Assembly (NCBI GenBank): GCA_051003195.1
Contig: JBPCLP010000025.1
Span: 67,616 to 131,615, forward strand
Direction of reading: 5' to 3'
Length of the DNA stretch: 64,000 nucleotides
Origin: Candidatus Sumerlaeaceae bacterium
GTDB taxonomy: Bacteria; Sumerlaeota; Sumerlaeia; Sumerlaeales; Sumerlaeaceae
Under the pieces are notes generated by a model, which saw only the letters and a list, made by a program, of their open reading frames with translations, was not told the origin of the DNA and searched no databases. The translations under genes and the position numbers were made by a program. The first letter of the stretch is position 1; each line of letters starts with the position of its first letter. This document shows, piece after piece, positions 12,814-57,353 of this stretch.

Positions 12814-12897
12814 AATTCGTTCACTGGTTTTGTGTGCCGTCCGAGCTCGAAAGCTTCCTGAAGTATAGCCATGAACTTCCGGGACGGCACACTAGAT
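12814..12897 (+). repeat. REP-like palindromic repeat, family 1 (diverged copy)
   Basis: ttcgttcactggttttGTGTGCCGtccgagctc...cgggaCGGCACACtagat. An 11-12-bp perfect inverted repeat shares GTGTGCCG/CGGCACAC arms, the left flank (tcgt..c.g.tttgtgtgccg) and the right end (cggcacactagat) with copies at 32411, 40897 and 57286. It starts 15 nt after the SPOR gene stop. Confidence 0.65.
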
Positions 12898-12987
12898 GAT
12901 CAGGGGTTAGGATGTGTGATGTACGACGTTTGCGCAAATCTGGAGTTGGCGCAGTCCATCCTGTCTCTGTGTGAAGGAATCTAGCGG

Positions 12988-15900
12988 TTGGATCTCGCAA
13001 TAGCACAGGAATTTCTCGACGAAGTAAATGCGAAAGCCGACGCGGGCGAACTCCTCAAGCGAATCGGCTATGCAAACGATAAAATCCAAGTGGTTGGAGA
13101 TGCCATCAAGGCATTTTGCCCGATCCATAAAGATAAGAAGTTTCGCTCGCTCCTTATTGAAAGCGGTAAACAGAGCTTCAAGTGCACGCTGAAGACATGC
13201 GCCGGCGCGCAGGGTGGAACCCTTGTGGAGCTTTATGCGCTGGCGCGTAAGATGGAGCCGCTGCTTGCGGGCGCTGAACTGGTGGGAGCGCTTGACCTCG
13301 CTATTGATCCCGAATGGACGAGCCAGATTGCGGCAGCCATGCTTGAGGAAGCACAGCAGGCATTCGTCAGGCGTGAACCTGAGCTGGCCGAAAGTGCTGC
13401 GCGCCGCGCGCTTAAGTTTCAGCCGACGCTTGCCGATGCACGTTTATTACTTGCGACGATGTTTGCCGAACGCGGCGAGATGGCGCAAGCTGTGGATGAG
13501 TATGCCGCCCTCGTGGAAGGCTATCTTTCCGCCTCGCAATATGAGGAAGCCGACCAGACGCTCGAAAGCGCGATCGCTGCATTTCCGGACAGCGAAGACC
13601 TGCTGTTTCTGCAGGTGCGTAGCGCCGAGCAGCAGAATCAAACGGATCGCGCCGTCGAGCTACTGAATGAGATCGTTGGTCGACGTGAGGCAACCAACCG
13701 CCAGATGGATAACGTTGGCGTGTTACAGAAAATTCTCGAGCTGCGTGCGGACAATGCGGATGCCCATGTAAAACTTTCGGAAATTTACGAGCAGCGCCAC
13801 GATATGCGCACGGCAGGCAAAGAGCTGGAGATAGCAGCCCGACTGCTGAAAGAACAGGGACGCAACGCCGACGCAATTCCACTTCTCGAAAGAGTTGTGA
13901 AACTTGCGCCTGAGATGGCGAAGACTCGCCTCGATCTCGCCGAGGAGCTGATTCGGGATGGCGATTATGCACGCGCCAAAGAACAGATTTTTGAAATCGC
14001 CAACCAGCAGATTGAGAACCAGAATTTCGCCGCCGCAGAATTAACAGCGCGTCGCTGGCTGGAAGTTGAACCGGAAAGTTTCGAGGTCCATGAGACACTG
14101 GCGCGTATCTACATGGACCAGGATCGGCAGTCGGAAGCCGGTGTCGAACTGAAACAGGCCGCCGAGTTTTCGCTGAAGCACGGTGAGTCGGAACGGGCGA
14201 TGCAGTTCTTCTTCAGGGTTAAGTTTGTAGCTCCGGAGAACCTCGAGGTACGCCGACAGATTATCAGCCTGTTTGAGCAGCAGGGAGAAACGGAGCGTGC
14301 CGGTTTCGAACTGCTGGACCTTGCTGAAGTGCTGCTGGGGCAATCAAATCCGGAGGAAGCAGAGCAGGCGCTTACCAGGGCCGCGGATATTACAGATTCG
14401 CGCGATGTGAAGCAGCAGGTAGCAGACACGCTGCTGTCCCACGGACGCAACGATGCGGCGGAACAGCTCCTCAGGCAGATAATCAGCGAGGCAGAAGCTG
14501 ACGCCGACCTGGCAGCGGTTGCCGATGCGAGCAGCACTCTGCTACAGATCCTGCCGGACGATGTGAGCCTGGCCTTTCGCCGATGCATGTGCCTCTGGGA
14601 GTGCGATCCGGACAGGGCGCTGGAAGAGACCGGAAGAGTTGTGGGCGATCTGTTGCAGGCAGGTGAACGTGAGAGTGCAGTAGATCTGCTGCGTAAGGGC
14701 GCTGCTTACGCATCCGAATACTGCGAAGAAAGCCTGGATTGTCTGCGACAGGCGTTGGGTGTGCAGGACGCTGAGTCCGCCGGGAAATTTTACTCTGCTG
14801 TAATTCACACCGTTGCGGAAGAAGATACTGAGGCAGCCCTGCAACTTGCTCGCGAGATGACAGCACTGGACCCTTCGCACGCAACGGCCCTGGCGGACTG
14901 CGGTGTGCTGTTCGCAAACGTCGGCATGACTCATGACTCTGCCGAGGCGTATGTTCAGCTTGCGAAAATCAGTGAGTCGACTGGTGACCGTGAACTCGCG
15001 CTGCAGCATCTGGAGGATGCGCTATCGCAGGAACCTGAGCACTTAACCGCGCTGCAGCGACGCGCAGAGCTCGCGCTGGCGCATACTGACGCCGACTCCG
15101 CGCGATCTTACTTTCAGGCATTCGTAGATGTACTCCAGGTGCGTGGTTCGGAAGATGAGCTACGGAGCGGACTGCGAACATACCTGGAATATTACCCGGA
15201 TGATCTCGCCGTGCAAATGCAGCTTGCATCGTTACTGGTTCAAGCAGGCGAGGAACAGAACGCGCTTGAAATGTACCTTCGGATTGCGGAGCATGCCAGC
15301 ACAACAGAAGCGGTCAGTCTCCAGGTAAACAGTCTGCAAAATGCAGTCGGCATCGCGGGGCGGGATGCGGCAATTCGGCAGCGCCTTGGAAAGGCTCTGA
15401 AACTTCACGGACAGGCGCAGGCTGCAGCTATCGAACTGCTTGAAGCCGCGCGACTTTTGTGCGAGTCGGGCAGCTTGTCCCAGGCGCGTACCGCAGCTGC
15501 TGAATCCGCAGAATCGGCTGACGATCCTCTCCAGGCGCTTGAGCTCCTGTGCACTATCGATGAGGAAATGAACGATCCCGAGCTGCTTGCAGAAGATCTG
15601 CCGCAGCTGATTGCACAGCTTCGCAGCGCTGGCCGTGTACATCAAGCTTTAGAACGGGCGAACCGGCTGCTTCAGCTGAAACCTGGTCTGGTAAGCCAGC
15701 GCATTGTCGCTGACCTCCGCGCCGAAAACGGCGACACAGACGAAGCGCTGAAGGAATACACGCTTCTTGCGCAGCAGTATGAGGAGCAGAAGGATTATCC
15801 GGAGGCGCTGGCCATTCATGCGGAAATGGCTCAACTGCGGGCGCCGAATCTTGATACGCTGCATCGGCTTGTTCGGCTCGCGGAAAAGACCAGTCCCGAA

Positions 15901-18900
15901 GCGGCGGCTTCGGCGAAGCTGCAATTAGGCCAGGCTTTGCTCGCATCTGGAGATGTGCTGGGGGCATTTGAAACCGCAAGAACGCTGGGTAAGCAAAACA
16001 CCGGTGTCCTGGCCGCGGCGATGCTGCTGCAAAAAATTGGACGGGCTGCGGGCACATTGGAACAGGCGCTGGAAGCTTTTCTCGCCGCCGCCGAAGCATA
16101 CGCGACGTTCCCTGAAAAATCGGAAGCCAAGATCGAGTGCCTTGAAGCGGCCCTGGCGCTTGATCCCGAAAACACCGCCGCGCACCAGATGCTCGCTGAG
16201 CATTACGAAGCCGCGGGAGAAGCGGATTTCGCATTCTCGCACCGTGTCGCATTACTGCCCGTGGCAGCCGGATCGAAAAAACAGAATGCCTGGAAACAGG
16301 AACTTGCAAAACTGCGTGTGCTGGCAGCCGATGATCCGGGCAAGCACCTCGAGCTTGGCAGGCGCGCGCTTCGCAGCGAGCAGGTAGCATATGCACTGGA
16401 GGACTTTGAAAAGGCCGCAGAGTTGGGCGCCGCAGCCGGGGATGATCCTGTTGTCCTGGAGTCCGCCGACGCTGCAGAGGCACTGGTGTTTAACTCCGTG
16501 GTGTTATGTCGCGCGAAATTTGACGTCCTGCTTTCTTCCGGTGATAAGGAAGTTGCGAAAGTATGGCTGCGCGAATGTGCGCAACAGGCACTACGAAGCG
16601 ACAAGGCCTCCGAAGCCGAAGACTACGCACAACGATGGATTGAACTCGACCGCGCCGATGCCGATGCGCTGGAACTGCTGGCGGCTGCCTACCAGAAACA
16701 GAACCGTACCCAGAAAGCCGTGGATACTTATATTGCGCTGGCTAATCTGCTTAAATTTGCTGGCGATTACGAGCGTTCCATCGCTATTCTTCGTCAGTGC
16801 CTCGCCGTCGACGATCAGTCCGTCCCAGCGCGACAGCTCCATTGGCAGGTGCTGCTTGAGGCAGATAAGCAGAACGAAGCATTACAGGAGATGCACCAAC
16901 TGGCTGACTTGCTGATTGAGCGGCAGTCATACCGCGACGCTTGTACGCTGCTATCGCGAATTCTCGATTATCGCACGAACTCCGAGCAGACGCTGGAGCG
17001 CCTGGCTTCTCTTGTTCACGAACACGAGGGATTCGCGAAGGCCTCCCCATACTTTAGAAAACTCATTCAATTGAAGAGTGCGACACTTCCGGCGGACCAG
17101 ATGGCGGCCGAGTACGAACGCATCTTGAAGCTTGAAGGGGTCGATGCCGAGTTTCGCCGGGAATATGCGGACTTTTTAAAAGCGCAGGGGCTGCTGCCCG
17201 ATGCCAAGGAACAATACCTTCACACCGCACAGGTGTACCGCGACGAATTGAATTCTCCCGAAAAAGCAGTCGAGCTTTTCATCCTTGCCGTGGAACTGCT
17301 TCCAGAGAGCGGCGACTCTCCCATCTACGAGGAAGTGGCCAGGCTGCACCAGGCATCAGGCAATCTGGAGGACGCGGTCGCAGCCCTCCGGAAAGCATCG
17401 AGACAATACATTGCTGCAGGTGAGAGCAAAAAGGCGGTGCAGTCTATCCGCAGAGCCCTGGAGATAGACATCGGTCAGGACCGAGCGGCGGACGAGGCTC
17501 TCCTCGCTCATGCACTGGTTGCAGCGGGGGAAAAGAAAAAGGCGAAGGAAGCGTTTAACCAGGCGTTCATAAAAGCGCAGTCGCCAGACAGCTCTCTTCC
17601 AGAATCAGTGCAACGCGAAGTCTACACGACACTTTTAGCGGCTGATCCGCTGCATGTGGAAAGCGCTCTTGCGCTGCTGGCGCTCTTACCAACCGGCGAT
17701 GTTGCGCCGTCTGCGCTGGAGACCCTTGGCGCTTTCAAGGAAGCAGGGCGTCACGAGGATCAAATTCGTATTCTCAAGGCGGCACGCTCCGCCGCACCTG
17801 CGGATATACAGATTCGTCAGGAGTTGGTTGGCTTATACAGGTCGCGCGGCGATACTGCGAAATTGCAATACGAGCTCGCCGACCTTGTGCGCACTGCCAG
17901 CGCCGCAAAACAGCATGATCATGCCCGCGAGGCGCTGGAAGAGCTTACGTGTCTCCCGCCATCGGCCGACCTTAAGCTGCAGGTAGCGCCGCTCTATTTT
18001 CAGCTCGAGGATGAGGAGCAGGCCGTCGCCGCCTACTGCAGCGCTGCTGAGCTTTTCGAGGAAGCGGGGCAGAGCGACGATGCGGTGGATGCTTTGCGGC
18101 ATGCACTCCAAATCAATGGCAACTCGGTACCTGCCGCCCTCGTTGCTTCGCTGGCGCGCAAGGGAGGCGCCGAGGTTCGAAAGATTGCGCGCGACATTCT
18201 CGAAGCGGCATTGATCGCCCGCACACGTACAAGATCACTGGTACTCGCGGTGGCCCTTTTGGAACGAGAACCCCTGGAGGAAGCAAAGCGGCTGCTGAGC
18301 ATGGTTTTTATGCGCGGCGGTGCAGGGTTTGTCGCCGCGATTGCCGGAACCCATGCGGACTGGCTGCTGGAAGCGGGAAGAAGCGACGATACCGCAGGGG
18401 TTGTGACGTTCATAACGCAATTGGCTCCGAACTCACCGGATGTATGGTGGCTCGCGTCCCAATTGAGAAAGCGCTGCGGCGACAAAGCGGGTTCCGCCGA
18501 GGCCGCACTGAAAGCGGCACAGCTATACAATGAAGCTGGCGCCGTTTCTGAGGAGGAGAGCTGCTACCGCGACGTTTTGGACGAGATTCCGGAAGACGCG
18601 GCGACGCTACAGACGCTGGCGTTTTTTTACGAACGCGAGAAGCGCGGTGAAGAAGGCATCGAAGTCATGCGCCGGCTGGCTGCCATCGCGCATAATGCAG
18701 GCGATGTAACCGGCGGATTAAGCTGGCTGCGGAAGGCGCTTGATTTGGGCCCCTCCCAGGATGAGTTGCGCGCGCAATACGCAGAACTGCTTCAGGTTGC
18801 CGGCAAATCTGACCAGGCGCTTGAGCAATGGCTGGAGGTTGCGCGACGCAGCGCCAAGACTGGAATCCCGGACCGCGCAGTCCACGCCTACCAGAAGGTA

Positions 18901-21846
18901 CTGCAGCTGGAGCCGGAGAACGAACACGCCCTCAGCTTCCTCCTGGATGCAGCAACGCGAGCTGGCGATGAAGCCGAGGTCCGCCGGCTCTCGCTCATAT
19001 TGGCAGAGATTAAAGCAGAAACCGGCGCAGTCATGCAGGCGTGTCAGCTTTTGAAGAACCTGGTACAGAAAGATCCCGGCAACATCGAAGCCCTGGAAAA
19101 ACTGTCGGCATTTTCGCTGCTGGCACACGATGAAGAAGGACACCGCGTTGCAGCGCTGAATCTCGGCAACAGGCTGGTAAAGCGCGGCGATTACCTGCGC
19201 GCCATGGAGCAGCTGGAATCGGCACTCGAGTACGACACCAGCAATCTCGAAATCCTCCAGACGCTGATCGACTGCTGCGCAGCCGAAGGTATCCTGGATC
19301 GAGGCGCTTCCTTCGCGATGCGTATGCTACAGGCCGCGAAAGCCGCTGGCCAGCCGGAGCGCGTGCGCCAGGCAGCCAGCACTATCCTCGGCTACGACGA
19401 GCAGCACACCATTGCGCGCCGCGAACTGGCTGAGGCGCTACTGTGCATGAACCGCCTGCCCGATGCCATTGCCGAATGGCAGCGTGCCGCAGAACAATTG
19501 GTATCTGATAAAAACCCGGCCTATGCGCTGGAGTGCTACCGCAGGATTGTGCAGGTCAGCCCCTCGCATATCCAGGCATGGCGCAAACTCGGCGACCTAT
19601 CCCTGCTTACCGGTGATTCAGACGCTGCGCGCGGCGCCTATCTGCATCTGCTGGAAGTGTACTCCCAGTCCGGCGAAATTGAAAAAGCTGATGCGATGAT
19701 CGCACGAATGCTTCAGCTGGACCCAGAGGACGCAGAACTACACCAGGAAGCGCTGGATGCATACAGGCGGACTGGTCGCAATGAGCACGCGATGGAGCAG
19801 GTGTTATGGCTGGTTCGGGATGCGATGGCAGCCGACGATCACGAAGAAGCCGAGCGCCTCATTGATCTTGGCAATGCCATTGCGCCGGACAGCCTTGCGT
19901 TGCAGCAATGCCAGCTGGAGGTCATCCGCAAACTTGGACGGACCGATGAGCTGCAATTGCGCCTGCGAGAACTTGCCGACAAGATGCTGCACGCAGGGGA
20001 ATTGCAAAGAGCAGCCGATGTGCTCGAGCAGATGCGAGACGCAGATCCCGAGAACATAGAGCTGCGAAAGGAAATTGCATCCACACGGATGCAGCTCGGT
20101 GAAATTCCACCAGCCATAGCAGAATACGCCTATGTCCTGCGCGAACTGATCCAGCGGCAGGAAACAGAGGAAGCACGAAGCACGGCGGACCAGATAGCGG
20201 CGCAATACGCCGACGTACTGGAGCTGCGAGCGCGCATCGGTGAAGTCTTTGCACAGAACGGCATGGCGGACGTCGGTTCCCGTCACTACATGGCGTGTGC
20301 GGAACTGGCCTACTCCGCAGAGGACCCGCTGGCGCAACTTCATTTTCTCCGCCTGGCCGTTGATGCACGACCGCGCTGGGCAGAGGGATACGAGAAGCTG
20401 GCGGAGGCGGCCCTAGCCGCCGATGACACGCAGGCGGCAGACACCGCATATGGGTCACTGGCCGAACTTTTAATAGAAGCCCGTAAATTTCCGCAGGCAG
20501 CTGCCACTCTGCGCACGCAGATTTCCCTGTTCCCAAAGCATGAACTTCCGCGTGCCCGATTAGTCGATTTATATGAGCGCACCGGAGATCGTGAAAACGA
20601 GGCGGTCGCTCTCCGCGAACTGGCAGACTTATACATTGCTGGGGGGATGATGGACGAAGCAGTCGAGAGCTATAAACGGCTGGTTACGCTTCGGCCTGAC
20701 GATCCGAAAACCCTGCAGAGGTATATTGAGCATTTCGCGCAAGTCGGAAACGAACTTGAAATCGTCGGCGAGTATCTGCGGCTTGCGCAGGCCTACGCCG
20801 CCAGCGGGAAATTGCAGGAGGCAATCCAGACGTTCGAGCAGGTCGCGTCCATTGACCGCAAAAACCCTGAGATTCATGAGAAGTTTGCCGCGTTACTGCT
20901 CACAAATGGTCAGAAGGGCCGAGCACTGGCAGAGCTGCGAAAGCTCGCGGATATTTATCAGCAGAAAGGTGAAATGGACGCCGCGGTCGAAGTGCTTCAT
21001 GCAGGACTGGCTCTGGATCCAGAGAACGCGGAATTGTGCCTGACGCTTGCGTCGGGTCAGCAAAAGTGTGGACTGCGCGACGAAGCGCAAACCAGCTACG
21101 CTCGCGCAAGCAACATTCTCAGTGGCACGACGGCAGTAAAAGCCATGGATGTTTACCGTGGAATGCTGGCGCACGATGAAGAGAACACCGAGATACGGCG
21201 CCGCCTGTGTGATTTGCTGGTCGAGTCGGGTGAACCTGCCGATGCCGCCGCTCACGCACGGAAGCTTGCTGAAATCCACTGCGGACGTGGTGAGATGGAT
21301 GACGCCGAAGACGCATATCGTATCGCTTCGGAATTGCAGCCGGAATCAGTCGATGCCTTAATGCAGGAAATTCAGAAGCATGCGCGCGATCCGTTTCTTC
21401 AGTACCTTGCCTACATTCGCCTGGGCAATCGGTTGTTCGAGGATGGCGACATTGATAGAGCTCTCGACACTTACCGCACAGCGCGATCGTTGAATGACGA
21501 ACGTCCCCAGACCATCCAGAAGTGTGTGGATTGTGTGAGCCTGATTGCTCCCGAGGCTGAAGCAATTCCCGATTACATCGCGCTGGCCGAGCGCTACATG
21601 GTGGCTGGCGATCCCGCACGCGCACGCAAGGTTTACGAACACATTGCGCGACTTGACCCATTTAACGCAGATGCAGGCAGAGGCCTTGTCGCTGCTGTGC
21701 AAGCAGAAAACGGTGCGAGATCGGTGCACAAGGCCGACACACGGCACGATCGCCAGGTACTTGGCCGTCGCGAACGCAAGAAGCGCGTCGGTCTTGAGGA
21801 GTTACTGTCTGCCTGTAAAGACGCCGCCGCACAGGAACGTCACTGA
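12988..21846 (+). CDS. giant tetratricopeptide-repeat protein (2952 aa) with N-terminal primase-type CHC2 zinc-finger-like motif
   Basis: Single uninterrupted ORF. Residues ~44-80 read CPIHKDKKFRSLLIESGKQSFKCTLKTCAGAQGGTLVELY, resembling the DnaG zf-CHC2 pattern CPFHxEKTPSFxV...KQxxHCFGCGxxGxxIxF. The remainder is helical TPR-like repeats (recurring AxxxxxxAL/LxxxP periodicity, very high Ala/Leu/Glu content). Confidence 0.85.
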   Translation: MDLAIAQEFLDEVNAKADAGELLKRIGYANDKIQVVGDAIKAFCPIHKDKKFRSLLIESGKQSFKCTLKTCAGAQGGTLVELYALARKMEPLLAGAELVGALDLAIDPEWTSQIAAAMLEEAQQAFVRREPELAESAARRALKFQPTLADARLLLATMFAERGEMAQAVDEYAALVEGYLSASQYEEADQTLESAIAAFPDSEDLLFLQVRSAEQQNQTDRAVELLNEIVGRREATNRQMDNVGVLQKILELRADNADAHVKLSEIYEQRHDMRTAGKELEIAARLLKEQGRNADAIPLLERVVKLAPEMAKTRLDLAEELIRDGDYARAKEQIFEIANQQIENQNFAAAELTARRWLEVEPESFEVHETLARIYMDQDRQSEAGVELKQAAEFSLKHGESERAMQFFFRVKFVAPENLEVRRQIISLFEQQGETERAGFELLDLAEVLLGQSNPEEAEQALTRAADITDSRDVKQQVADTLLSHGRNDAAEQLLRQIISEAEADADLAAVADASSTLLQILPDDVSLAFRRCMCLWECDPDRALEETGRVVGDLLQAGERESAVDLLRKGAAYASEYCEESLDCLRQALGVQDAESAGKFYSAVIHTVAEEDTEAALQLAREMTALDPSHATALADCGVLFANVGMTHDSAEAYVQLAKISESTGDRELALQHLEDALSQEPEHLTALQRRAELALAHTDADSARSYFQAFVDVLQVRGSEDELRSGLRTYLEYYPDDLAVQMQLASLLVQAGEEQNALEMYLRIAEHASTTEAVSLQVNSLQNAVGIAGRDAAIRQRLGKALKLHGQAQAAAIELLEAARLLCESGSLSQARTAAAESAESADDPLQALELLCTIDEEMNDPELLAEDLPQLIAQLRSAGRVHQALERANRLLQLKPGLVSQRIVADLRAENGDTDEALKEYTLLAQQYEEQKDYPEALAIHAEMAQLRAPNLDTLHRLVRLAEKTSPEAAASAKLQLGQALLASGDVLGAFETARTLGKQNTGVLAAAMLLQKIGRAAGTLEQALEAFLAAAEAYATFPEKSEAKIECLEAALALDPENTAAHQMLAEHYEAAGEADFAFSHRVALLPVAAGSKKQNAWKQELAKLRVLAADDPGKHLELGRRALRSEQVAYALEDFEKAAELGAAAGDDPVVLESADAAEALVFNSVVLCRAKFDVLLSSGDKEVAKVWLRECAQQALRSDKASEAEDYAQRWIELDRADADALELLAAAYQKQNRTQKAVDTYIALANLLKFAGDYERSIAILRQCLAVDDQSVPARQLHWQVLLEADKQNEALQEMHQLADLLIERQSYRDACTLLSRILDYRTNSEQTLERLASLVHEHEGFAKASPYFRKLIQLKSATLPADQMAAEYERILKLEGVDAEFRREYADFLKAQGLLPDAKEQYLHTAQVYRDELNSPEKAVELFILAVELLPESGDSPIYEEVARLHQASGNLEDAVAALRKASRQYIAAGESKKAVQSIRRALEIDIGQDRAADEALLAHALVAAGEKKKAKEAFNQAFIKAQSPDSSLPESVQREVYTTLLAADPLHVESALALLALLPTGDVAPSALETLGAFKEAGRHEDQIRILKAARSAAPADIQIRQELVGLYRSRGDTAKLQYELADLVRTASAAKQHDHAREALEELTCLPPSADLKLQVAPLYFQLEDEEQAVAAYCSAAELFEEAGQSDDAVDALRHALQINGNSVPAALVASLARKGGAEVRKIARDILEAALIARTRTRSLVLAVALLEREPLEEAKRLLSMVFMRGGAGFVAAIAGTHADWLLEAGRSDDTAGVVTFITQLAPNSPDVWWLASQLRKRCGDKAGSAEAALKAAQLYNEAGAVSEEESCYRDVLDEIPEDAATLQTLAFFYEREKRGEEGIEVMRRLAAIAHNAGDVTGGLSWLRKALDLGPSQDELRAQYAELLQVAGKSDQALEQWLEVARRSAKTGIPDRAVHAYQKVLQLEPENEHALSFLLDAATRAGDEAEVRRLSLILAEIKAETGAVMQACQLLKNLVQKDPGNIEALEKLSAFSLLAHDEEGHRVAALNLGNRLVKRGDYLRAMEQLESALEYDTSNLEILQTLIDCCAAEGILDRGASFAMRMLQAAKAAGQPERVRQAASTILGYDEQHTIARRELAEALLCMNRLPDAIAEWQRAAEQLVSDKNPAYALECYRRIVQVSPSHIQAWRKLGDLSLLTGDSDAARGAYLHLLEVYSQSGEIEKADAMIARMLQLDPEDAELHQEALDAYRRTGRNEHAMEQVLWLVRDAMAADDHEEAERLIDLGNAIAPDSLALQQCQLEVIRKLGRTDELQLRLRELADKMLHAGELQRAADVLEQMRDADPENIELRKEIASTRMQLGEIPPAIAEYAYVLRELIQRQETEEARSTADQIAAQYADVLELRARIGEVFAQNGMADVGSRHYMACAELAYSAEDPLAQLHFLRLAVDARPRWAEGYEKLAEAALAADDTQAADTAYGSLAELLIEARKFPQAAATLRTQISLFPKHELPRARLVDLYERTGDRENEAVALRELADLYIAGGMMDEAVESYKRLVTLRPDDPKTLQRYIEHFAQVGNELEIVGEYLRLAQAYAASGKLQEAIQTFEQVASIDRKNPEIHEKFAALLLTNGQKGRALAELRKLADIYQQKGEMDAAVEVLHAGLALDPENAELCLTLASGQQKCGLRDEAQTSYARASNILSGTTAVKAMDVYRGMLAHDEENTEIRRRLCDLLVESGEPADAAAHARKLAEIHCGRGEMDDAEDAYRIASELQPESVDALMQEIQKHARDPFLQYLAYIRLGNRLFEDGDIDRALDTYRTARSLNDERPQTIQKCVDCVSLIAPEAEAIPDYIALAERYMVAGDPARARKVYEHIARLDPFNADAGRGLVAAVQAENGARSVHKADTRHDRQVLGRRERKKRVGLEELLSACKDAAAQERH

Positions 21847-21882
21847 GACACAAACCCCCGGCGGCGCACTATATCCTGCGTG

Positions 21883-22665: not shown

Positions 22666-22778
22666 TTACTATCTGAACCAAGGTGCTGTAATGACGAACT
22701 TCAGGATCAAGTAAAAGGCGACGCCGTTCCATTTCGCGGTAGTAAACGCGAAACACTTGCGTACGTACTCGACCCGGA

Positions 22779-23747: not shown

Positions 23748-23759
23748 GTCTCCAGTATT

Positions 23760-24281: not shown

Positions 24282-24648
24282 CGCTGCCAAACTCCTCGGT
24301 ATTCTGGCAATACTGACACAAGATAACGCGCCGTTAGTCTTTGGTTCAATTTTAATCGCCAGTCCAGACCCTGCAACGCGCCGCTTCATTAAATTAAGAC
24401 TTGGAATGACCAGCCAGATGTGCAGTATTTTGCACATTAAGTGAAGAACTGACGGTCTATAGGGCCAAGAGCCCGCGGAAGGGGGTGCAAATCCCCCACG
24501 GACACGCCGCTGTAATCGGGGACGAACTCTGTAGAACCACTGCCGAAAGGCGGGAAGGACAGAGCGAGGACGAACCGAAAGTCAGAAGACGGGGTCGCCA
24601 GTTCCTCCAAATTGCCTCCCGTGCTCAGGAGGCGAAGGAGAGAATGGT

Positions 24649-25455
24649 ATGTCATCAGTCCTGTCACGCGCCAGTGGCTCGGCCCGGCATTGGGCTGCGC
24701 TTGTACTGTTGATGATTGCGGCGTATCCCGCTCAATCGCAATCGTTTCCCGATCGTGTGGCGGCATTTATGCCGGGAGTGAACAGCGGCTTCGGGCAAGC
24801 TTACTACCCCACAAACGTTCTGGGCGCGCCGCACGGAAATACAAATCCCCAGACGCCGAACTTCTCACAGCAGGATCTCTTAAGTCTCGGCACCGGAGGT
24901 GAAATCGTCCTGGAGTTTACAAGTACGGAAATCGTCAACGGTCCGGGAGACGACTTCACCGTGTTCGAAAACCCGGTCCAGCCGATCAGCAATCCTGACC
25001 AGAGCTTTGTCGATTCGGCAACAGTTTCAGTGAGTGACGACGGAACGTCATGGGTCACTTTCCCATTTCATATTGTTTCCATCAGTGCCGACAGGCTCTA
25101 TTATAAGAGCAACTACGTTGGTCTTGCAGGCGTACAGCCGACATTCAGCTCTCCCACCAATGGGATTTCCCCGTTCGATCGCGCAGTAAGCGGCGGCGAC
25201 GGCTATGACCTGACGAGCGTCGGTCTTACCCGCGCGCGTTTCATTAGAATCAAAGACACAGGAACCACGACCGTCTCCCCTACTATCGATTTGCTGGGAC
25301 ACATTGTAAACGACTACGGAAATCAGCTGGACCCGGATCCCCTTTCGCCAGGGGTTGGAATTGCCGCGGGATTCGATCTTGATGGGATCGCCGCCATCCA
25401 CACCACACCACGCACAACCGCCGTTCGGCGCGAAGACTGGGTTCTTTACGAATGA
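24649..25455 (+). CDS. secreted hypothetical protein, first gene of pseudopilin/Wzy_C/GT39 operon
   Basis: Signal peptide ...HWAALVLLMIAAYPAQSQS. The stop overlaps the start of the downstream pseudopilin gene (ATGA). No family recognised. Confidence 0.6.
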   Translation: MSSVLSRASGSARHWAALVLLMIAAYPAQSQSFPDRVAAFMPGVNSGFGQAYYPTNVLGAPHGNTNPQTPNFSQQDLLSLGTGGEIVLEFTSTEIVNGPGDDFTVFENPVQPISNPDQSFVDSATVSVSDDGTSWVTFPFHIVSISADRLYYKSNYVGLAGVQPTFSSPTNGISPFDRAVSGGDGYDLTSVGLTRARFIRIKDTGTTTVSPTIDLLGHIVNDYGNQLDPDPLSPGVGIAAGFDLDGIAAIHTTPRTTAVRREDWVLYE

Positions 25456-26096
25456 TGCAGCGACGGGTGACCGCGTTTACGCTGATCGAACTGCTGGTCG
25501 TGGTTGCGATCATTGCCATTCTCGCGCTGATTGCCGTCCCAAACTTTCTGCAGGCCAAACACCGTGCAATTCAAACCAGGTGTGCGGCGAACCTGAAAAC
25601 ATTGGCACAGGCGCTTTATACCTACCGTGTTGACCTGGATAAGTACCCGCTGGCGGACGGCATTGCAGGTATTGAGGAAAGCATGGCGCAGACCTCCGCC
25701 GGAAACGGGCCGGCCGCGAACGGAAGCTGGGACGCCGTGCCGCGCGTGCTTGTTCGGTTGCGATATCTTGCGACAGATGATTACCTGTTCTGCCCATGTT
25801 TTAAGGAGCAGTTTCGCAGTGAGCGCCTGCAACGCTTCCGCTATGCCTACAACAACTCAGCCGCAGACACCGGAGGAACCGGAGGCAGCACCAACGACGT
25901 CGATCGTGACTCGCACGATATCTGGTTGGCGCGATGCCTTTGGGTTCCCACGGCCCGCAGCTTCCATCCGGAAGCACGCGAAGTGCAGTGGCCCCACGGA
26001 AAAAATCACGATCGCGAAAACGTGCTGTATTCTAACAGCCGCGTTGAGCTCGCGAACGGCCAGGCTGACTTCGAGCGGGCAAATCCGGCGCCATAG
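25452..26096 (+). CDS. GspG-like pseudopilin (prepilin-type N-terminal cleavage/methylation domain protein)
   Basis: MMQRRVTA followed by FTLIELLVVVAIIAILALIAVPNFLQAKHRAIQTRCAANLKTLAQALYTY. Gly/Thr/Ser-rich tract TGGTGGSTND in the C-terminal half. Confidence 0.8.
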   Translation: MMQRRVTAFTLIELLVVVAIIAILALIAVPNFLQAKHRAIQTRCAANLKTLAQALYTYRVDLDKYPLADGIAGIEESMAQTSAGNGPAANGSWDAVPRVLVRLRYLATDDYLFCPCFKEQFRSERLQRFRYAYNNSAADTGGTGGSTNDVDRDSHDIWLARCLWVPTARSFHPEAREVQWPHGKNHDRENVLYSNSRVELANGQADFERANPAP

Positions 26097-26117
26097 GCCA
26101 GTATTTCACTCGGGGCA

Positions 26118-31591: not shown

Positions 31592-32416
31592 TTGATGAAA
31601 CTTGGAATAGTTGGCAGCACCACGATGGCGGACTTCTGGCGCGCGGCCGCGATGGCAGCAGATGCACGTGCAGATATTAAGTACTACGAGTCTGACGTGC
31701 CTGGTGCAGATCTCGCAATCGCCGACTGCGAAGTGGTGTGGATTCCAGCTTCCTCGATGGCTGTGAACCACGGGGCGGGCAGAGTGCTATACAACCCCGC
31801 CGCTGACCCGGAACACAAAATAACCAACGGCAGTCCGAGCTTTCCACTGCGCCATCGGTCCGAGATTCGACACCTGAAGCAAGTGTTGGAAGGCGGAAAG
31901 CTGGGCCAGGTCGGCACCGTGCGACTCAGCCTGTGCCGCAGCGCCTCCGCTCCGGGCCCGCTTTGCTATAGCGAGTTCTCTCCGGTCGCAGGCGCACTGC
32001 AGCAACTCGGGGGGCATGGGTTTGATGCAATCCACTGGTGCTTTGGTAATATCGAGCGCGTGCACGCCGTCGAAAGCAGCGAATCCACAAATGCCGCGCA
32101 GTATGCGCTGCTCGTGGCGCGACTCGATAGCGGCGCCATTGCGCATCTGGAGCTTTCCTTCGCCGAGCCTGCAGGTGGTGACTACCTCTATTATGAAATC
32201 GCAGCGAAAAACGGCATCGTTGAATACGACTCCCGCAAAGAGCCCACCCTGGAGCTTGTCGCAAAAACTTCCGCCGCCCCAGCTACGTCCCCACCGCCCG
32301 AACTCGTCGCCGAACTCCGCGCATTTCTCAGGAACGAGACTGCGAATTTCCCAACTCATGCAGACGCCGCCGCAGCAAGCCAGCTAGTAAAAGCCAGCCG
32401 GGCCAGCGTTATCTAG
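31592..32416 (+). CDS. Gfo/Idh/MocA-like oxidoreductase-fold protein (degenerate NAD-binding motif)
   Basis: N-terminal KLGIVG Rossmann start and central RHRSEIRHLKQVLEGGKLGQVGTVRL block as in Gfo/Idh/MocA. The TAG stop is contributed by the inverted repeat copy at 32411. Confidence 0.45.
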   Translation: MMKLGIVGSTTMADFWRAAAMAADARADIKYYESDVPGADLAIADCEVVWIPASSMAVNHGAGRVLYNPAADPEHKITNGSPSFPLRHRSEIRHLKQVLEGGKLGQVGTVRLSLCRSASAPGPLCYSEFSPVAGALQQLGGHGFDAIHWCFGNIERVHAVESSESTNAAQYALLVARLDSGAIAHLELSFAEPAGGDYLYYEIAAKNGIVEYDSRKEPTLELVAKTSAAPATSPPPELVAELRAFLRNETANFPTHADAAAASQLVKASRASVI

Positions 32417-32507
32417 TGTGCCGAATCAGTAGTTCCTTACCAGGCCAAAGGGCAGACTTGAGAGCTCGATTCGGCACACAGAACTGGTTACGAATTAATG
32501 GTAGACC
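32411..32507 (-). repeat. REP-like palindromic repeat, family 1 (copy A, inverted orientation)
   Basis: Reverse complement reads ggtctaccattaattcgtaaccagttctGTGTGCCGAATCGAGctctcaagtctgccctttggcctggtaaggaactactGATTCGGCACACtagat. About 85% identical to 40897..40985. Perfect 12-bp arm GTGTGCCGAATC/GATTCGGCACAC. Confidence 0.75.
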
Positions 32508-32961
32508 ACGCTAGCCTGAATTGTCAGGGAAGCATCGACTCTGGAATTGGCTGTGGCATCGGCTGTATCGTAATTTATGAATCCGCAGAGTGAATGGGTC
32601 ATCGACAGCGATGCGCTTGCTCGAGTCCATGACCTCGTCCGGCGCCAACGCTTACGTTGCCTCTGGTTCACGCGCGAATCTGCCTGAAGATCTGCCCTCT
32701 TGCTTGCGAACACTCGACCAGATCGAGACGAATGGCGACCGAAACGCATACGTGGAGGCGCGCAAACTAAAGCAGTGGCTCTTACAATTAGCCAGCGGGA
32801 CATCTGCCGCCTAATATCCCAAAACCGAAAGTCGCAGAACGAAGCCTACATCGCTATTCGCGGAGCATTTCCAATGATAGGTTCTGATGCTGACAATTAG
32901 ATCGCAGCAGTAACTCGTAACACTTGTTCGAAATTGCCGGCCATCAAGACGCCTGCCCCAT

Positions 32962-33012
32962 AAAACAAAACCGCCCCGGGCTGTTCGCGCAGCACCGGGG
33001 CGGTTGGTTTTT
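32962..33012. terminator. bidirectional Rho-independent terminator (downstream of rny; also faces 31592 gene)
   Basis: aaaacaaaa CCGCCCCGG gctgttcgcgcagca CCGGGGCGG ttggttttt. A 9-bp GC stem is flanked by an A-tract and a T-tract. Confidence 0.7.
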
Positions 33013-33140
33013 CAGGAGGTTTACTTTTCTACTCTTCCACTTTTGTACTTTTCTGCTTCAGCTCTCGTGAGTTTTGCTTTCTTGGTTTTGGCTGCTGTTT
33101 GCCTCAGCAGTTCATTCCAGCGAGGGCGGCTTCCCGGCCT

Positions 33141-40767: not shown

Positions 40768-40896
40768 CCAGCAACGCTCCCGCCTTGCACAACTATAGTC
40801 TTACGCGCAGTGTAAAGCCGCAGCTCAAAATGGATCAAGTGAAATCGCCTGTCCTGCATGACAACTTGTTGTCAAGTAACGCGGCTGACAAGCGAC

Positions 40897-40985
40897 GGTC
40901 TACCATTAACTCGTAACCAGTTCTGTGTGCCGAATCGAGCTCAAGTCTGCCGGGCTGGTAAGGAACTACGGACTCGGCACACTGG
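40897..40985 (+). repeat. REP-like palindromic repeat, family 1 (copy B)
   Basis: ggtctaccattaactcgtaaccagttctGTGTGCCGAATCGAGctcaagtctgccgggctggtaaggaactacggaCTCGGCACACtgg, in the divergent intergenic region between zapB and the cupin gene. Confidence 0.75.
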
Positions 40986-41421: not shown

Positions 41422-41630
41422 CACTAACATCTCACGCGGCGTCCTTATCCCACAAGACGTCCGCCCATTGCATAAGACCGTCCGGAATTCTTAATTCAAC
41501 AGATCAGGTTTTGGCTTTTTCGTGCCCGTGCACGTGCCCTGATCTCGTGCACGTCAATTGTTGAACGACGCCTCCCCGGAATCGAGTGTCCGCGTTTTCA
41601 GAGGAAGTTCAACTTAGCCCTTACCGTAAC

Positions 41631-41694
41631 TGATCTTTTGATGAAGTCTCCATGACGTTAGCAACTTAATTAGTGACAACGTCAACAGTCCCAG
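41631..41694 (+). mobile_element. MITE/REPIN-like element family 2, truncated copy F (left flank plus partial TIR)
   Basis: tgatcttttgatgaagtctccatgacgttagcaacttaattagtgacaacgtcaacagtcccag aligns to 61893..61957 of copy D and then diverges. Confidence 0.6.
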
Positions 41695-43876: not shown

Positions 43877-43882
43877 AAAATC

Positions 43883-43913
43883 GGGACGGTTGACGTTTTC
43901 CCCAATTAATTGG
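43883..43913 (-). mobile_element. solo terminal inverted repeat of element family 2, abutting RAYT remnant
   Basis: gggacggttgacgttttccccaattaattgg matches the right TIR of copy E (ccacggttgacgtttcccccaatttttgg) and the reverse complement of the left TIR of copy D. Confidence 0.65.
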
Positions 43914-43963
43914 ATTGCATCTGCCGTTCATCTGCAGGCTGCCGTAGATCACCTATCGCACGT

Positions 43964-44215
43964 ATGGCAAGGATTGTTGTCGCGGGATGCCCGCATCACA
44001 TCACCCACCGCAGCAACCTGCGCGCCGACATCTTCCTCCACGACAACGACCGCCTGCTCTACAAGTCGCTGCTCGCACAAACCTCGCGCCCGTTCGGACT
44101 GCAGATCTGGGCCTACTGCCTTTTGACAAACCACATCCACCTCATCGCCGTCATTAATTACTCAATAGAATCAGACCCAAACTCTGCACGAATTCCCGGG
44201 AATTTGCACTCGTGA
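43964..44215 (+). pseudogene. REP-associated tyrosine transposase (RAYT, IS200/IS605 TnpA-like) N-terminal fragment, truncated
   Basis: MARIVVAGCPHHITHRSNLRADIFLHDNDRLLYKSLLAQTSRPFGLQIWAYCLLTNHIHLIAV matches the RAYT pattern (YHVTxRGNxRQxIF...AYCLMPNHxHLL, HUH motif NHIHLI). It terminates ~84 aa in, before the catalytic Tyr region. Confidence 0.7.
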
Positions 44216-44262
44216 TTTTATGCACAAATGCGGCAGTCGACAGCATGACACGTGCTCAACGA

Positions 44263-44281: not shown

Positions 44282-44291
44282 GGAGCGGCCC

Positions 44292-44855: not shown

Positions 44856-44935
44856 GCCACAGCCGCACCCGCGGCTACCTCACTCATGAATTCGCTTCGC
44901 ACGTTTTTCGACGGCGGGTGTATGCTTGGCCACGT

Positions 44936-45544: not shown

Positions 45545-45552
45545 CGCGGGAT

Positions 45553-48360: not shown

Positions 48361-48547
48361 CCCGTCACGTCAGCACGGTTTGAAATCTCGAAATTTCCGC
48401 CTTTTATATTGCCTAACGACATGCCTGCCGGGGCAAATGCATGGTGCAGGTTACCTATGACCTGCAGAAAGCTGCCTCTGCGTGGCCCGGCATCCGCCGT
48501 GGTCTATCGGTTCAGGCACAACACCGGTCACGAAAGGGTGCTTAAAC

Positions 48548-49906: not shown

Positions 49907-50024
49907 CATGGGTTGGCACAGCAGGCCAAGCGACGGGCTGCTGCGCAAGCTTCAAACGACGCTGGACAATGGCGCGAACCGCTGCACCCCTGTGTACAAT
50001 AATCGCCATGTGGAGGCCTAAACA

Positions 50025-50411
50025 TTGCCAAAGCGAATAGTGGTAGTGGACGATGAGCCGGACATCCGCACGATGCTGGACATCAGCCTGAAAAACCAGG
50101 GGTACGAGGTGCAGCTGGCGTCCGACGGTGTTGAAGGGCTGGAGCTCATTCGCAAAACACGGCCCGACCTGGCGATACTTGACGTGAAGATGCCGCGCAT
50201 GAATGGCTTCGAGCTGCTGGTTGCTATGCGCAACGACGCGCAGCTAAAGGACATGCCCGTGGTGATGCTGACGTCCCTGACAGTCGGCACCGGAAAGTCG
50301 GACGAGCTTTGGCGCCAAAGCCTGGAAATCACCGACTTCCTGTCCAAGCCCTTCGATACACAGGAATTGCTGAGCCGCGTCAACCGAATCCTGGAGAAAC
50401 CCGCGGAATAG
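50025..50411 (+). CDS. single-domain response regulator (CheY-like receiver)
   Basis: RIVVVDDEPDIRTML...PDLAILDVKMPRMNGFELL...MPVVMLTSL with conserved Asp pocket and phospho-acceptor. 128 aa. Confidence 0.85.
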   Translation: MPKRIVVVDDEPDIRTMLDISLKNQGYEVQLASDGVEGLELIRKTRPDLAILDVKMPRMNGFELLVAMRNDAQLKDMPVVMLTSLTVGTGKSDELWRQSLEITDFLSKPFDTQELLSRVNRILEKPAE

Positions 50412-50579
50412 TTCGTGCGCAGCGGCTTCGGGCGTCCATACTGTCTCCGTTTCTCTAGTTGACTTGATCCGGGCCGGGTAACGACTATCCGCGGCTTTGT
50501 GAAAAATGGCGCAAATACAGCGCCTGCTGCAATGTTGCAGCCTCTTAGTTTGCCAAATTACCCGGAGTCACGCTATTAG

Positions 50580-52592: not shown

Positions 52593-52705
52593 TTTTTATT
52601 GAAGGCGATCTACGCCGCATTTAGAGCAACGTGGGTATCATACGTCACGGCTGGCAAAGCCATTCTAATTGCGAGGCTTAGGCACTGTTAAACGTTCAGG
52701 CAATC

Positions 52706-55249: not shown

Positions 55250-55273
55250 GTGGTCCGGCATAAAGGATTCCCA

Positions 55274-55960
55274 ATGAAGCAGTTTGTCACCCTTTGCATA
55301 TTCCTGTGCCTTGTTTGCGTTGCAGGCGCGGCCGATACCAAAATTGCCTATGTCGACATCGAGAAGGTTACCGGTAAGGCGAAAGCAATCAACAGCGCTC
55401 TCTCGACGGTCGGCGATAAAGTCAAAAAGTACCAGAACGACATTGAGTCCAAACGCAAAAAGATCCGCGACCTTGAAGACGATGTGAAGCGCACCGAAGG
55501 AGTGTTGTCTCGCGACGAGGTCGATAAAAAACGCAAAGAGATCAACACGCTGAACAACGAAATCGACGACCTTGTGCTGCAGGGACGCCGCGAGATGCAG
55601 CGAGTCGACGACACTTTTTATTCCCCCCTTCTGAAGAAGATCATTTACGCCATCCAGGACGTCGCCGCCGAGAAGGACATCGATATCGTCCTGCGCGGGG
55701 AAGTCGTACTGTACGGCAAGGACACCGCCGACATTACCAACGATGTGATTCGGAAGCTGAACGAGGACGATAGCGCTTCCACTGCTGCCAGAACAGAGAA
55801 GAAGACTGAAACACCGGCGAAGCCCGCAGACACCACCGCCAAGCCCACCGAGTCGGCAAGCCCGGCAGCCGCAAACGTTGTGGTGCCGGAAACACCCGCA
55901 AAGCCAAAGCCGACGAAAACGCCTGCCTCCGCGCGACCGGTTGACCGCCAGCCTGACTGA
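55274..55960 (+). CDS. skp: periplasmic chaperone Skp (OmpH)
   Basis: Signal peptide MKQFVTLCIFLCLVCVAGA. KIAYVDIEKVTGKAKAINSALSTVGDKVKKYQNDIESKRKKI... coiled-coil OmpH pattern. AAGGA RBS before ATG 55274 (the track ORF starts at GTG 55250). Pro/Thr-rich C-terminal tail. Confidence 0.8.
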   Translation: MKQFVTLCIFLCLVCVAGAADTKIAYVDIEKVTGKAKAINSALSTVGDKVKKYQNDIESKRKKIRDLEDDVKRTEGVLSRDEVDKKRKEINTLNNEIDDLVLQGRREMQRVDDTFYSPLLKKIIYAIQDVAAEKDIDIVLRGEVVLYGKDTADITNDVIRKLNEDDSASTAARTEKKTETPAKPADTTAKPTESASPAAANVVVPETPAKPKPTKTPASARPVDRQPD

Positions 55961-55980
55961 TCGCCTGCCCCGCTAGCGGA

Positions 55981-56817
55981 ATGCGTAATCGTCAGACGAT
56001 CAACTCCGTCGTCGAAGTCTCGGGGCGCGGCGTCCACACCGGGCAGGAAGGTACGGTGCGCTTTTTGCCGGCGCAATCGGGCGAAGGAATCATCTTCCGG
56101 AGAACGGACCTCCACGGCGAAGCGATACCTGCACGGCTGGACTACCTCGTGCCTGATCAGTTGCTGCGGCGAACCACACTTGCGAACGGTCGTGCCAAAG
56201 TCCACACGATCGAACATGTGCTGTCCGCCGCAGCCGGATGTGATGTCGACGACTTGCTGATCGAAATGAACACAGGCGAGCCGCCCTTTCTGGACGGCAG
56301 CGCCGCACGGTTTGTCGAACTGCTTCAACAAGCGGGCATCACACAGCAGCGGGAGAATTGCCAGCCGCTCGAGATCGGCGAACCGCTGGCGTTCCGGGAT
56401 GGAGACGCCGAGTTTTCGTGCCTCCCGTCTGACGAGTTTCGAGTCAGTTTCTTCTTCACCTCCGACCATCCTAAACTAAGGCGTCAGGCGGCCAGCATCG
56501 TCATAACGCCGGAAACGTACGCCGCGGAAGTCGCACCCGCCCGCACCTTTTGTTTCTTTGAAGAAATCGAGTCCATGCGTCGGCAGGGACTTATCAAAGG
56601 CGCCAACCTTTCCTCCGCTGTGGTGATTGGCCGCAAAGGCATGTTGAACGACTCGCTGCGTTTTCCGGATGAGCCGGTGCGGCACAAAATTCTTGATTTT
56701 ATCGGTGACCTCGCCCTGCTCGGACGACCCCTGAAGGGGCACTTCCTGGCGTGGCGTTCCGGTCATCGTGCCAATGCGGCGTTTGCGCTTTATCTCAAAA
56801 AGGAGTTCGGCCTGTGA
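55981..56817 (+). CDS. lpxC: UDP-3-O-acyl-N-acetylglucosamine deacetylase
   Basis: MRNRQTINSVVEVSGRGVHTGQEGTVRFLPA...VHTIEHVLSAAAGCDVDDL...EPPFLDGSAARFVELL with conserved zinc ligands. 278 aa. Confidence 0.93.
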   Translation: MRNRQTINSVVEVSGRGVHTGQEGTVRFLPAQSGEGIIFRRTDLHGEAIPARLDYLVPDQLLRRTTLANGRAKVHTIEHVLSAAAGCDVDDLLIEMNTGEPPFLDGSAARFVELLQQAGITQQRENCQPLEIGEPLAFRDGDAEFSCLPSDEFRVSFFFTSDHPKLRRQAASIVITPETYAAEVAPARTFCFFEEIESMRRQGLIKGANLSSAVVIGRKGMLNDSLRFPDEPVRHKILDFIGDLALLGRPLKGHFLAWRSGHRANAAFALYLKKEFGL

Positions 56818-57293
56818 GTGAAACCCCGGCGGTACCCGCGGCGATGGACATCAACCGCATCCTGGAGATTCTCCCCCACCGCTATCCGTTTCTGCTGGTG
56901 GATCGCATCCTCGAAATGCGCGAGGGGTTTGTAGTCGGCCAGAAGTGCGTCACGATGAACGAATGGTTTTTCCAGGGCCACTTCCCGCAGCAGCCGGTGA
57001 TGCCGGGAGTCCTCATCCTCGAGGCGATGGCGCAGACGGGCGCTATACTCGCACATCTGCACGAGGAAAACCGCGGCCGCCTGATTTTTCTCGCGGGTGT
57101 GGATGACGCGCGATTCCGCAAAGTCATATCGCCGGGCGATGTGCTGCGTATCGAGATGACTGAGATCCAGCGGCGCAAAAACATCGGCCGTTGCAGCGGA
57201 CGCGTGCTCGTCGACGGCAAGCTTGCGTGCGAAGCTGTGCTGACCTTCGCGGTACAGGCATCGAGCCAGGGTCGGTCTGCCGATAGTTCGTAA
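56814..57293 (+). CDS. fabZ: 3-hydroxyacyl-[ACP] dehydratase FabZ
   Basis: ILEILPHRYPFLLVDRILE...FFQGHFPQQPVMPGVLILEAMAQTGAIL hotdog motif. Probable GTG start overlaps the lpxC stop (GTGA); alternative ATG at 56844. The TAA stop lies inside the repeat copy at 57286. Confidence 0.9.
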   Translation: MSETPAVPAAMDINRILEILPHRYPFLLVDRILEMREGFVVGQKCVTMNEWFFQGHFPQQPVMPGVLILEAMAQTGAILAHLHEENRGRLIFLAGVDDARFRKVISPGDVLRIEMTEIQRRKNIGRCSGRVLVDGKLACEAVLTFAVQASSQGRSADSS

Positions 57294-57353
57294 TCAGTTC
57301 TGTGTGCCGAATCGAGGGTAAGTTTGCCCTTTGGTCTGGTAAATGAACTAAGG
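57286..57353 (+). repeat. REP-like palindromic repeat, family 1 (copy C, 3' part diverged)
   Basis: gttcgtaatcagttctGTGTGCCGAATCGAGggtaagtttgccctttggtctggtaaatgaactaagg. The 5' 40 nt are near-identical to copies A and B. It shares gccctttgg.ctggtaa with copy A. Confidence 0.65.

Follow-up and report, generated by a model that had tools for sequence, protein, structure and literature searches.

A CTAG-bounded, hairpin-forming repeat of about 100 nucleotides at gene ends in a Sumerlaeota genome, probably a miniature inverted-repeat transposable element

We analyzed a 64-kb stretch of DNA from a "Candidatus Sumerlaeaceae bacterium" (hereafter the window), over which the genome of this host was read, and found a repeat of about 100 nt, named family 1, in four dispersed copies. 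The two intact copies run from CTAG to CTAG, and in each of them one terminal CTAG contains the TAG stop codon of an abutting gene. In our view, the repeat is probably a miniature inverted-repeat transposable element (MITE) that a CTAG-targeting DDE transposase, most like those of the IS481 and IS3 families, mobilizes in trans. Family 1 is a previously undescribed MITE family, ordinary in kind. The first-pass annotation of this DNA had reported a dispersed, noncoding, hairpin-forming intergenic repeat of the repetitive extragenic palindrome (REP) or MITE kind that overlaps gene 3' ends, a description that our analysis upholds.

Four copies of family 1 in the window

The copies are labeled A (12.8 kb, + strand), B (32.4 kb, - strand), C (40.9 kb, + strand), and D (57.3 kb, + strand), and their limits are as follows.

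Copy A, 12795 to 12895, + strand: full length, 101 nt, CTAG to CTAG, ends CTAGTGTGG...GGCACACTAG.
Copy B, 32413 to 32514, - strand: full length, 102 nt, CTAG to CTAG, reading CTAGCGTGGTCTACC...GATTCGGCACACTAG on the minus strand.
Copy C, 40889 to 40985, + strand: full length, 97 nt, ends mutated to CAAG and CTGG.
Copy D, 57266 to about 57354, + strand: 5' module and 5' arm conserved, 5' end CCAG, profile match ending at 57354.

A profile hidden Markov model built from the four copies matched only those four in the window (E values of 1.3e-32 for B, 2.1e-27 for C, 3.2e-23 for A, and 1e-21 for D; next match, E 1.4; nhmmer), and all four were also recovered with MAFFT and a repeat finder. Sequence inspection and the profile search both place the copies where the first-pass annotation had put them. 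The core that it had outlined stands, and its 5' limits move, as the homology reaches about 20 nt further 5', to G-C[T/A/C]AG. Copy A, which had been said to start at 12814, 15 nt past the stop of a SPOR-domain gene, begins at 12794-12795 and includes that TAG.

Identity over whole copies is 84% for B-C, 81% for B-D, 74% for C-D, 70% for A-B, and 66% for A-C; the earlier figure of ~85% fits these values (B-C), and A is the most diverged copy (66 to 70% to B and C). The 5' parts of B and C are 98% identical over 46 nt, and D, the fabZ copy, is 80 to 88% identical to B and C over its 5' 43 to 61 nt. As is usual for MITEs, the copies are small (97 to 102 nt) and noncoding, no frame being open throughout all of them because indels in the loop shift the frame, and they are dispersed in both orientations and in unrelated contexts (four in 64 kb). 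Copy A lies between the SPOR gene and a gene for a 2952-aa TPR protein, both on the + strand, and copy C lies between divergent genes (ZapB-like, - strand; cupin, + strand). The 3' arm of copy D is missing or degenerate. A CACAC-GAT remnant at 57365-57372 was considered as its 3' arm and rejected, since 587 of 2000 shuffled sequences scored equally well.

Several observations concern the surroundings of the copies. Directly downstream of copy A is a single open reading frame (ORF) of 2952 codons rich in TPR repeats (12988-21846, + strand). The RNase Y stop and copy B lie ~625 nt apart (32516-33140), an interval with no convincing ORF (the longest, of 102 aa, lacks a Pfam match), and copy B itself is bracketed by a promoter-like site (32527-32498, - strand) and a terminator-like site (32407-32393, - strand). 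Between copy D and an FG-GAP gene (57431-58741), a TTGACA-N18-TTATAA sequence (57381-57412, + strand) resembles a promoter, yet it fails the strict -10 rule of our scan.

The window has a G+C content of 57.4% and carries housekeeping genes (ClpX, LytB, MetK, RNase Y, an AsnS/LysS-type tRNA synthetase, and RecR) as well as a SurA-BamA-Skp-LpxC-FabZ gene cluster. Its FabZ is 100% identical to MGI8906911.1 and its Gfo/Idh/MocA-like protein is 100% identical to MGI8906889.1 ("Candidatus Sumerlaeaceae bacterium" metagenome-assembled genome [MAG]), and the RNase Y proteins of the nearest genomes in the GTDB collection, which are Sumerlaeota MAGs, are 59 to 79% identical to that of the window. As an independent assembly we used Logan contigs of the same organism (run SRR33880242), which carry identical genes, span 1.4 to 4.5 kb, and stop at repeats. 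Three of them end inside family 1, namely, L083 in copy B (window 32440), L090 in copy C (window 40940), and L091 in copy D (window 57300). A fourth contig, L092 (window 62054-63443), served as a control and ends in the two 137-nt repeats of an unrelated family (family 2, see below), so breaks in that Logan assembly mark repeats.

Searches elsewhere gave no further copies. Among 80 RNase Y loci and two loci of fabZ orthologues, none matched the family 1 profile, and the RNase Y loci of relatives (L001 to L009) showed almost no synteny past the gene itself and no family 1 copy. An exact search with the 20-mer GTTCTGTGTGCCGAATCGAG returned 0 matches in GTDB genomes, JGI metagenomes, and IMG/VR, and six-frame translations of the element matched nothing among predicted ORFs on other contigs. 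By BLAST, copy B had no match in plasmids or phages.

Ends, hairpin, and predicted folding

From left to right, the element consists of CTAG, YGTG, a 5' module (GGTCTACCATTAAYTCGTAACCAGTTCT), and a hairpin whose 3' arm forms the right end. The 5' module, of ~30 to 36 nt, is conserved, nonpalindromic, and outside the hairpin. In A and B, YGTG adjoins the left CTAG on its inside and CACA adjoins the right one, which gives a terminal inverted repeat CTAGYGTG/CACRCTAG of 8 nt including CTAG. CTAG is thus present on both flanks of A and B and mutated in the other copies, where the ends of C (CAAG and CTGG) and the 5' end of D (CCAG) are each one substitution away from it. The stems differ among copies as follows.

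Hairpin of copy A, 12832 to 12892, + strand: arms GTGTGCCGTCC / GGACGGCACAC, 11 perfect bp.
Hairpin of copy B, 32416 to 32479, - strand: arms GTGTGCCGAATC / GATTCGGCACAC, 12 bp plus one G-T.
Stem of copy C: 9 bp, an A-C mismatch, and 3 bp.
Stem of copy D: at most 5 bp, without a real 3' arm.

The perfect arms of 11 to 12 bp that had been attributed to the family are therefore a property of A (11 bp) and of B (12 bp plus G-T), and they do not extend to C and D. The 100-nt segment holding copy A (12806-12905) has a predicted RNA minimum free energy (MFE) of -34.1 kcal/mol (z -3.2), with -27.5 for the hairpin alone. For the 111-nt segment holding copy B (32405-32515), the MFE is -35.0 kcal/mol on the element strand (z -3.2) and -40.2 on the opposite strand (z -4.5), and the hairpin alone gives -25.8. 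Copies A and B (z about -3) fold better than their shuffled controls, and copy C does not. Three or four positions in each arm differ between A and B (AATC/GATT in B, TCC/GGA in A), with pairing kept.

The stable folds of A and B and these compensatory changes speak for a functional RNA family (small RNA, mRNA 3' stabilizer, or terminator) kept by selection and not mobile, as do the minus-strand signals at copy B, where a promoter-like CTGACA-18-TACCAT is accompanied by a terminator-like hairpin and T-run directly downstream. However, promoter and terminator signals occur at that one copy only, the loop varies in sequence and length, and copy D has lost the hairpin. Moreover, the element is absent in relatives, both at fabZ and up to 10 kb away from RNase Y, and its dispersal in both orientations would require mobility anyway. 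Nor do RNA signatures point this way: terminator-like sites are not found at any of the four hairpins, and no U-tract stands behind any copy. The Rfam check proposed in the first-pass annotation gave no match to family 1, even at E values of up to 10; at the gathering threshold the only match in the window was a cobalamin riboswitch elsewhere, and permissive scans added only chance matches to microRNA hairpins (E 0.17 and 5.4). We regard a nonmobile functional RNA as the least probable of the explanations weighed here.

Three other features were considered for the family and rejected. Stops in all three frames hold for copy B alone; a small toxin-like ORF (type I toxin-antitoxin) is contradicted by the 32-codon antisense frame of copy B being broken in A and C; and the flanks do not fit, by inspection, the RYYYAAC/GTTRRRY of an integron attC site.

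CTAG rarity and coincidence of element ends with stop codons

No other of the 256 tetranucleotides is as rare in the window as CTAG, which occurs 21 times, where base composition predicts 239 occurrences and a Markov model 50. The aligned ends of copies A and B account for four of the 21. An equal degree of depletion is seen in Sumerlaeota loci L001 to L006, L081, and L082 (0 to 12 CTAGs per 10 to 22 kb, versus 38 to 78 expected) and, together with that in the window, points to a phylum-wide avoidance by restriction, methylation, or repair. Because CTAG is so depleted in the window and in relatives, chance does not account for the CTAGs that bound the two intact copies on each side; these either belong to the element or represent a duplicated target.

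The element ends were found to coincide with stop codons, present or former, at each of the three ends that abut a gene.

SPOR-domain gene stop TAG, 12796 to 12798, + strand: end of gene 9955-12798 (947 codons), the TAG of the 5' CTAG of copy A.
Gfo/Idh/MocA-like gene stop TAG, 32414 to 32416, + strand: end of gene 31592-32416, the TAG of the 3' CTAG of copy B.
fabZ read-through, 57267 to 57293, + strand: CAG (57267-57269), then GRSADSS, then TAA (57291-57293).

The terminal CTAG of copy B is palindromic and so reads the same on either strand. Among the five closest orthologues of the Gfo-like protein, the C termini are 0 to 4 residues longer and unconserved. In fabZ, the in-frame CAG codon at 57267-57269 aligns with the terminal TAG of A and B, and the identical tail is carried by the Logan product P0129. 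A comparison of fabZ 3' ends with those of relatives, which the first-pass annotation had called for, showed that DNA homology between the window and the closest orthologous locus (L081, FabZ 83% identical) ends at 57257 and that the L081 FabZ stops two codons past this point, with LTFAVQR as its last residues. FabZ orthologues extend 1 to 10 residues past their last conserved Q or G, so that an ancestral fabZ with the end ...QASS-TAG would have had a normal length.

The coincidence is in frame at 3/3 gene-abutting ends (ancestrally for D), for which the chance is about 1/27, and none of the genes appears to have lost coding sequence. Both facts favor targeted over donated stops, and the most economical account is that the element probably inserted into preexisting C-TAG stops and duplicated them. 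The earlier claim that two copies donate the stops of upstream genes was right in placing TAG 32414-32416 and TAA 57291-57293 inside the repeat. It holds as donation for the TAA of fabZ, whereas we read the TAG of the Gfo-like gene as a duplicated preexisting C-TAG stop. The only stop donated in truth is the present TAA of fabZ, after a change of TAG to CAG. The atypical FabZ tail had likewise been ascribed, as probable, to the element as a whole; the TAA is indeed internal to it, FabZ gains eight residues (CAG plus GRSADSS), and only the last 7 to 8 of the 11 tail residues are element encoded. It is possible that CTAG is itself part of the element, in which case the stops would be donated and family 1 would still be a small mobile repeat.

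Analogous elements in metagenomes

A metagenome scan with the pattern TGTGTGCCG-N35-60-CGGCACACTAG returned six loci. Two of them, L085 and L086, look like chance matches (8-bp stem, no association with an ORF) and were set aside, and L084 and L089 represent one locus. The others contain the following elements.

133-nt element: L089 1667 to 1799, L084 4288 to 4420, L087 1551 to 1683.
166-nt element: L088 699 to 864, ends CTAGTGTGCCGTC...GACAGCACACTAG.

L089 and L087 have only a 133-nt segment in common (97.7% identical), with flanks that differ on both sides. This segment starts exactly with CTAGTGTCC and ends exactly with GGCACACTAG, i.e., from CTAG to CTAG, and none of L084, L089, and L087 contains a CTAG other than the two that bound it. 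Its hairpin has 16-bp arms. The 166-nt element has a terminal inverted repeat matching at 11/12 positions, CTAGTGTGC(C/T)G, and a hairpin with 17-bp arms at one end. Both elements share the layout of family 1, CTAG-TGT...ACA-CTAG with a hairpin at one end. Past GTGTGCCG, the arms differ among A, B, and the two analogue families, each remaining self-complementary. In L087, L089, and L088, an abutting ORF (171 to 233 open codons) again has its stop codon in a terminal CTAG, these ORFs encoding a carbonic anhydrase, a His-rich secreted protein, and a porin-like protein. The analogue contigs have a G+C content of 66 to 70% and no further similarity to the window, and neither element had a BLAST match in plasmids.

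Family 1 and the 133- and 166-nt elements may conceivably form one widespread, undescribed MITE superfamily with CTAG-TGTGCCG ends and an end-proximal hairpin, homing to amber C-TAG stops in CTAG-depleted genomes, although we hold this broader grouping to be doubtful. If it were true, each insertion would set a stable hairpin at a gene end, as a portable 3'-end module (terminator or stabilizer), and homing could help to explain where the remaining CTAGs of such genomes sit.

How family 1 may be mobilized

We propose that a DDE transposase from another part of the genome, with IS481/IS3-type enzymes as the closest, binds the TGTG...CACA ends and inserts the element into the tetranucleotide CTAG, which would be duplicated in full (4 bp) or only in its central TA. 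With CTAG nearly purged from the genome, many of the tolerated targets would be C-TAG stops or intergenic CTAGs, and insertions would then fall exactly on stop codons and regenerate them. Before insertion, the allele of the SPOR gene would have carried a single CTAG, ...CGCCGCTAGATGATC.... Old copies would decay as their CTAGs mutate, and in fabZ a change of TAG to CAG would have added eight residues up to the internal TAA. A stable hairpin right behind a stop may also stabilize or end the mRNA.

Several points weigh against this proposal. Neither the window nor any locus that we retrieved yielded a transposase with matching ends; among the scanned ORFs of the window, no transposase family was represented except by a truncated Y1_Tnp ORF, and a search of 1.57 Mb for insertion sequences with CTAGTGT...ACACTAG ends gave two chance pairs only, both in AT-rich Polaribacter loci. 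The NCTAGN direct repeats are not seen, since copy A has GCTAGT versus ACTAGA and L089 has CCTAGT versus ACTAGC. A and B share one base (G) outside the left CTAG and two or three (AT.A) outside the right one, and such shared outer bases seem more natural if CTAG belongs to the element than if it is a duplicated target; the duplication itself is deduced from the flanks of the present copies. The sample consists of four copies, only two of which have an intact CTAG at both ends, and the terminal inverted repeat is short. Finally, the scan pattern itself demanded ...CGGCACACTAG, so the right ends of the analogues are not independent observations; their left ends, their boundaries, and their coincidence with stop codons are independent of the pattern.

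The transposase of such a MITE could instead be of the IS630/Tc1-mariner type, duplicating the TA within CTAG, or of the IS5 type, duplicating 4 bp (CTAG/YTAR), and the CTAG flanks of A and B would suit these types as well. Known IS630-derived MITEs are similar in size, such as RUP at 107 bp and the Correia elements. IS630 is described as preferring the TA within CTAG (Tenzen & Ohtsubo 1991, as cited in PMC2170065), and the IS5-related MITEPsy1, of 100 nt, duplicates CTAG or YTAA (PMC3189936). However, the TGTG...CACA of family 1 beside CTAG matches IS3/IS481-type repeats, and its ends are unlike the IS5-family repeats listed in the same sources (PMC2516522, PMC6794481, PMC2877748). An IS630- or IS5-type enzyme is in our view an unlikely agent.

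A different route would be that of a REP or REPIN moved by a REP-associated tyrosine transposase (RAYT, an HUH enzyme) via a single-stranded hairpin and with no target duplication. A long imperfect palindrome at intergenic or gene-end positions, compensatory changes that keep the stem paired, copies C and D without clear duplications, and a truncated Y1_Tnp/RAYT-like ORF at 43910-44215 would all agree with it. The first-pass annotation had pointed to this RAYT remnant and to its flanking family 2 sequence; the remnant is real but weak (Pfam Y1_Tnp, E 5.5e-4), and the flank was confirmed, the sequence preceding the remnant being a copy of the unrelated family 2 (43886-43918) and not of family 1. 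In addition, family 1 is asymmetric, with a conserved 5' module of ~36 nt outside the hairpin; it has CTAG-TGTG at both ends, with CTAG as its head and no GTAG-type REP head; its unit is ~100 nt and not a 20- to 40-nt palindrome; and two analogue families are bounded exactly by CTAG...CTAG. Judged by sequence, the CTAG-YGTG...CACA-CTAG ends would fit a transposase-mobilized MITE better than a RAYT-mobilized REP, and mobilization by a RAYT appears improbable.

Family 2 and other features of the window

Family 2, the second repeat family, occurs at 41624-41689, 43886-43918, 61885-61967, 62065-62095, 63399-63429, and 63527-63565. It includes two direct copies of 137 nt (61950-62086 and 63412-63548) that are 94% identical and contain inverted segments; this pair, in both members of which L092 breaks, brackets a pseudopilin-like gene (62118-62840). 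The truncated IS200/RAYT-like ORF (43910-44215, + strand) covers positions 3 to 60 of the 121 of the Y1_Tnp profile and comes right after a family 2 copy. Because the Y1_Tnp ORF lies directly behind that copy, its position suggests that family 2 is the REP-type partner of the truncated RAYT-like enzyme.

The gene bracketed by family 2 (- strand) and a second one at 5516-6241 (- strand) are paralogues that have 72% of their nucleotides in common over 171 nt and carry a prepilin-type N-terminal methylation motif, and a third gene with such a motif is found at 25452-26096. The latter, a pseudopilin-like N_methyl gene, follows an unannotated gene (24649-25455) downstream of the cobalamin riboswitch (24436-24613, + strand; Rfam RF00174, 79 bits).

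Significance

A literature search by phylum word returned only ecology and genomics papers for Sumerlaeota (formerly BRC1), and by this search family 1 is the first repeat or MITE family that we found described for the phylum. It breaks short-read assemblies of its host and alters gene 3' ends, as in FabZ with its additional 8 residues. Family 1 leaves the current understanding of MITEs unchanged. Its one twist is the apparent homing to CTAG or stop codons. If homing to CTAG stops holds genome-wide, it would be a natural example of oligonucleotide avoidance channeling transposon insertion to gene ends, and it would offer a simple route to related elements in other CTAG-poor genomes.

Comparison with known systems

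REP, bacterial interspersed mosaic element (BIME), and REPIN sequences resemble family 1 in being palindromic and intergenic, often just past stops, and in having been proposed as mRNA stabilizers. However, REPs are 20 to 40 nt long, have a conserved GTAG-like head, and flank their own RAYT, whereas family 1 is ~100 nt long, asymmetric, and bounded by CTAG.

Among MITEs, family 1 is like MITEPsy1, the IS630-derived RUP, Correia, and Nezha, which are noncoding, multicopy, hairpin-forming elements of ~100 to 150 nt located at gene ends. These have terminal repeats of 18 to 26 nt that pair end to end, whereas those of family 1 are only ~8 nt long, and its long hairpin lies at one end only, where an internal copy of the right end pairs with that end. 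We found no sequence similarity of family 1 to MITEPsy1, RUP, Correia, or Nezha elements.

IS407A belongs to the IS3 family, has the ends TG...CA, and produces duplications of 4 bp (PMC2877748), and the IS407 group as a whole shares these two traits with what we propose for family 1, although the duplications of IS407A are not CTAG specific. The inverted repeat of IS407A, TGACCTGCCCCCT (PMC2877748), is similar to the sequence TGTCCTGCCCCTT at the left end of the 133-nt analogue, a likeness that family 1 does not share.

IS481-family elements target CTAG, have inverted repeats starting with TGTG or TGTT, and reportedly use the flanking TAG as a stop for their own transposase and for neighboring parB genes (PMC6794481, PMC2516522). 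Family 1 is like IS481, ISLxc2, and ISRe46/TnRErm46 in its apparent CTAG target, its TGT(G/T) ends, and the flanking TAG that serves as a stop. IS481-family elements are at least 1.1 kb long and encode an rve-type transposase, whereas family 1 has ~100 nt and is noncoding; their inverted repeats (e.g., TGTGTTTCTCAGGGACGTTGG) are unrelated to family 1 past TGTG; and they duplicate 6 bp (NCTAGN), whereas the outer N positions differ in family 1. Taken without this 6-bp NCTAGN duplication, the IS481/IS3 pattern is the one that family 1 fits best.

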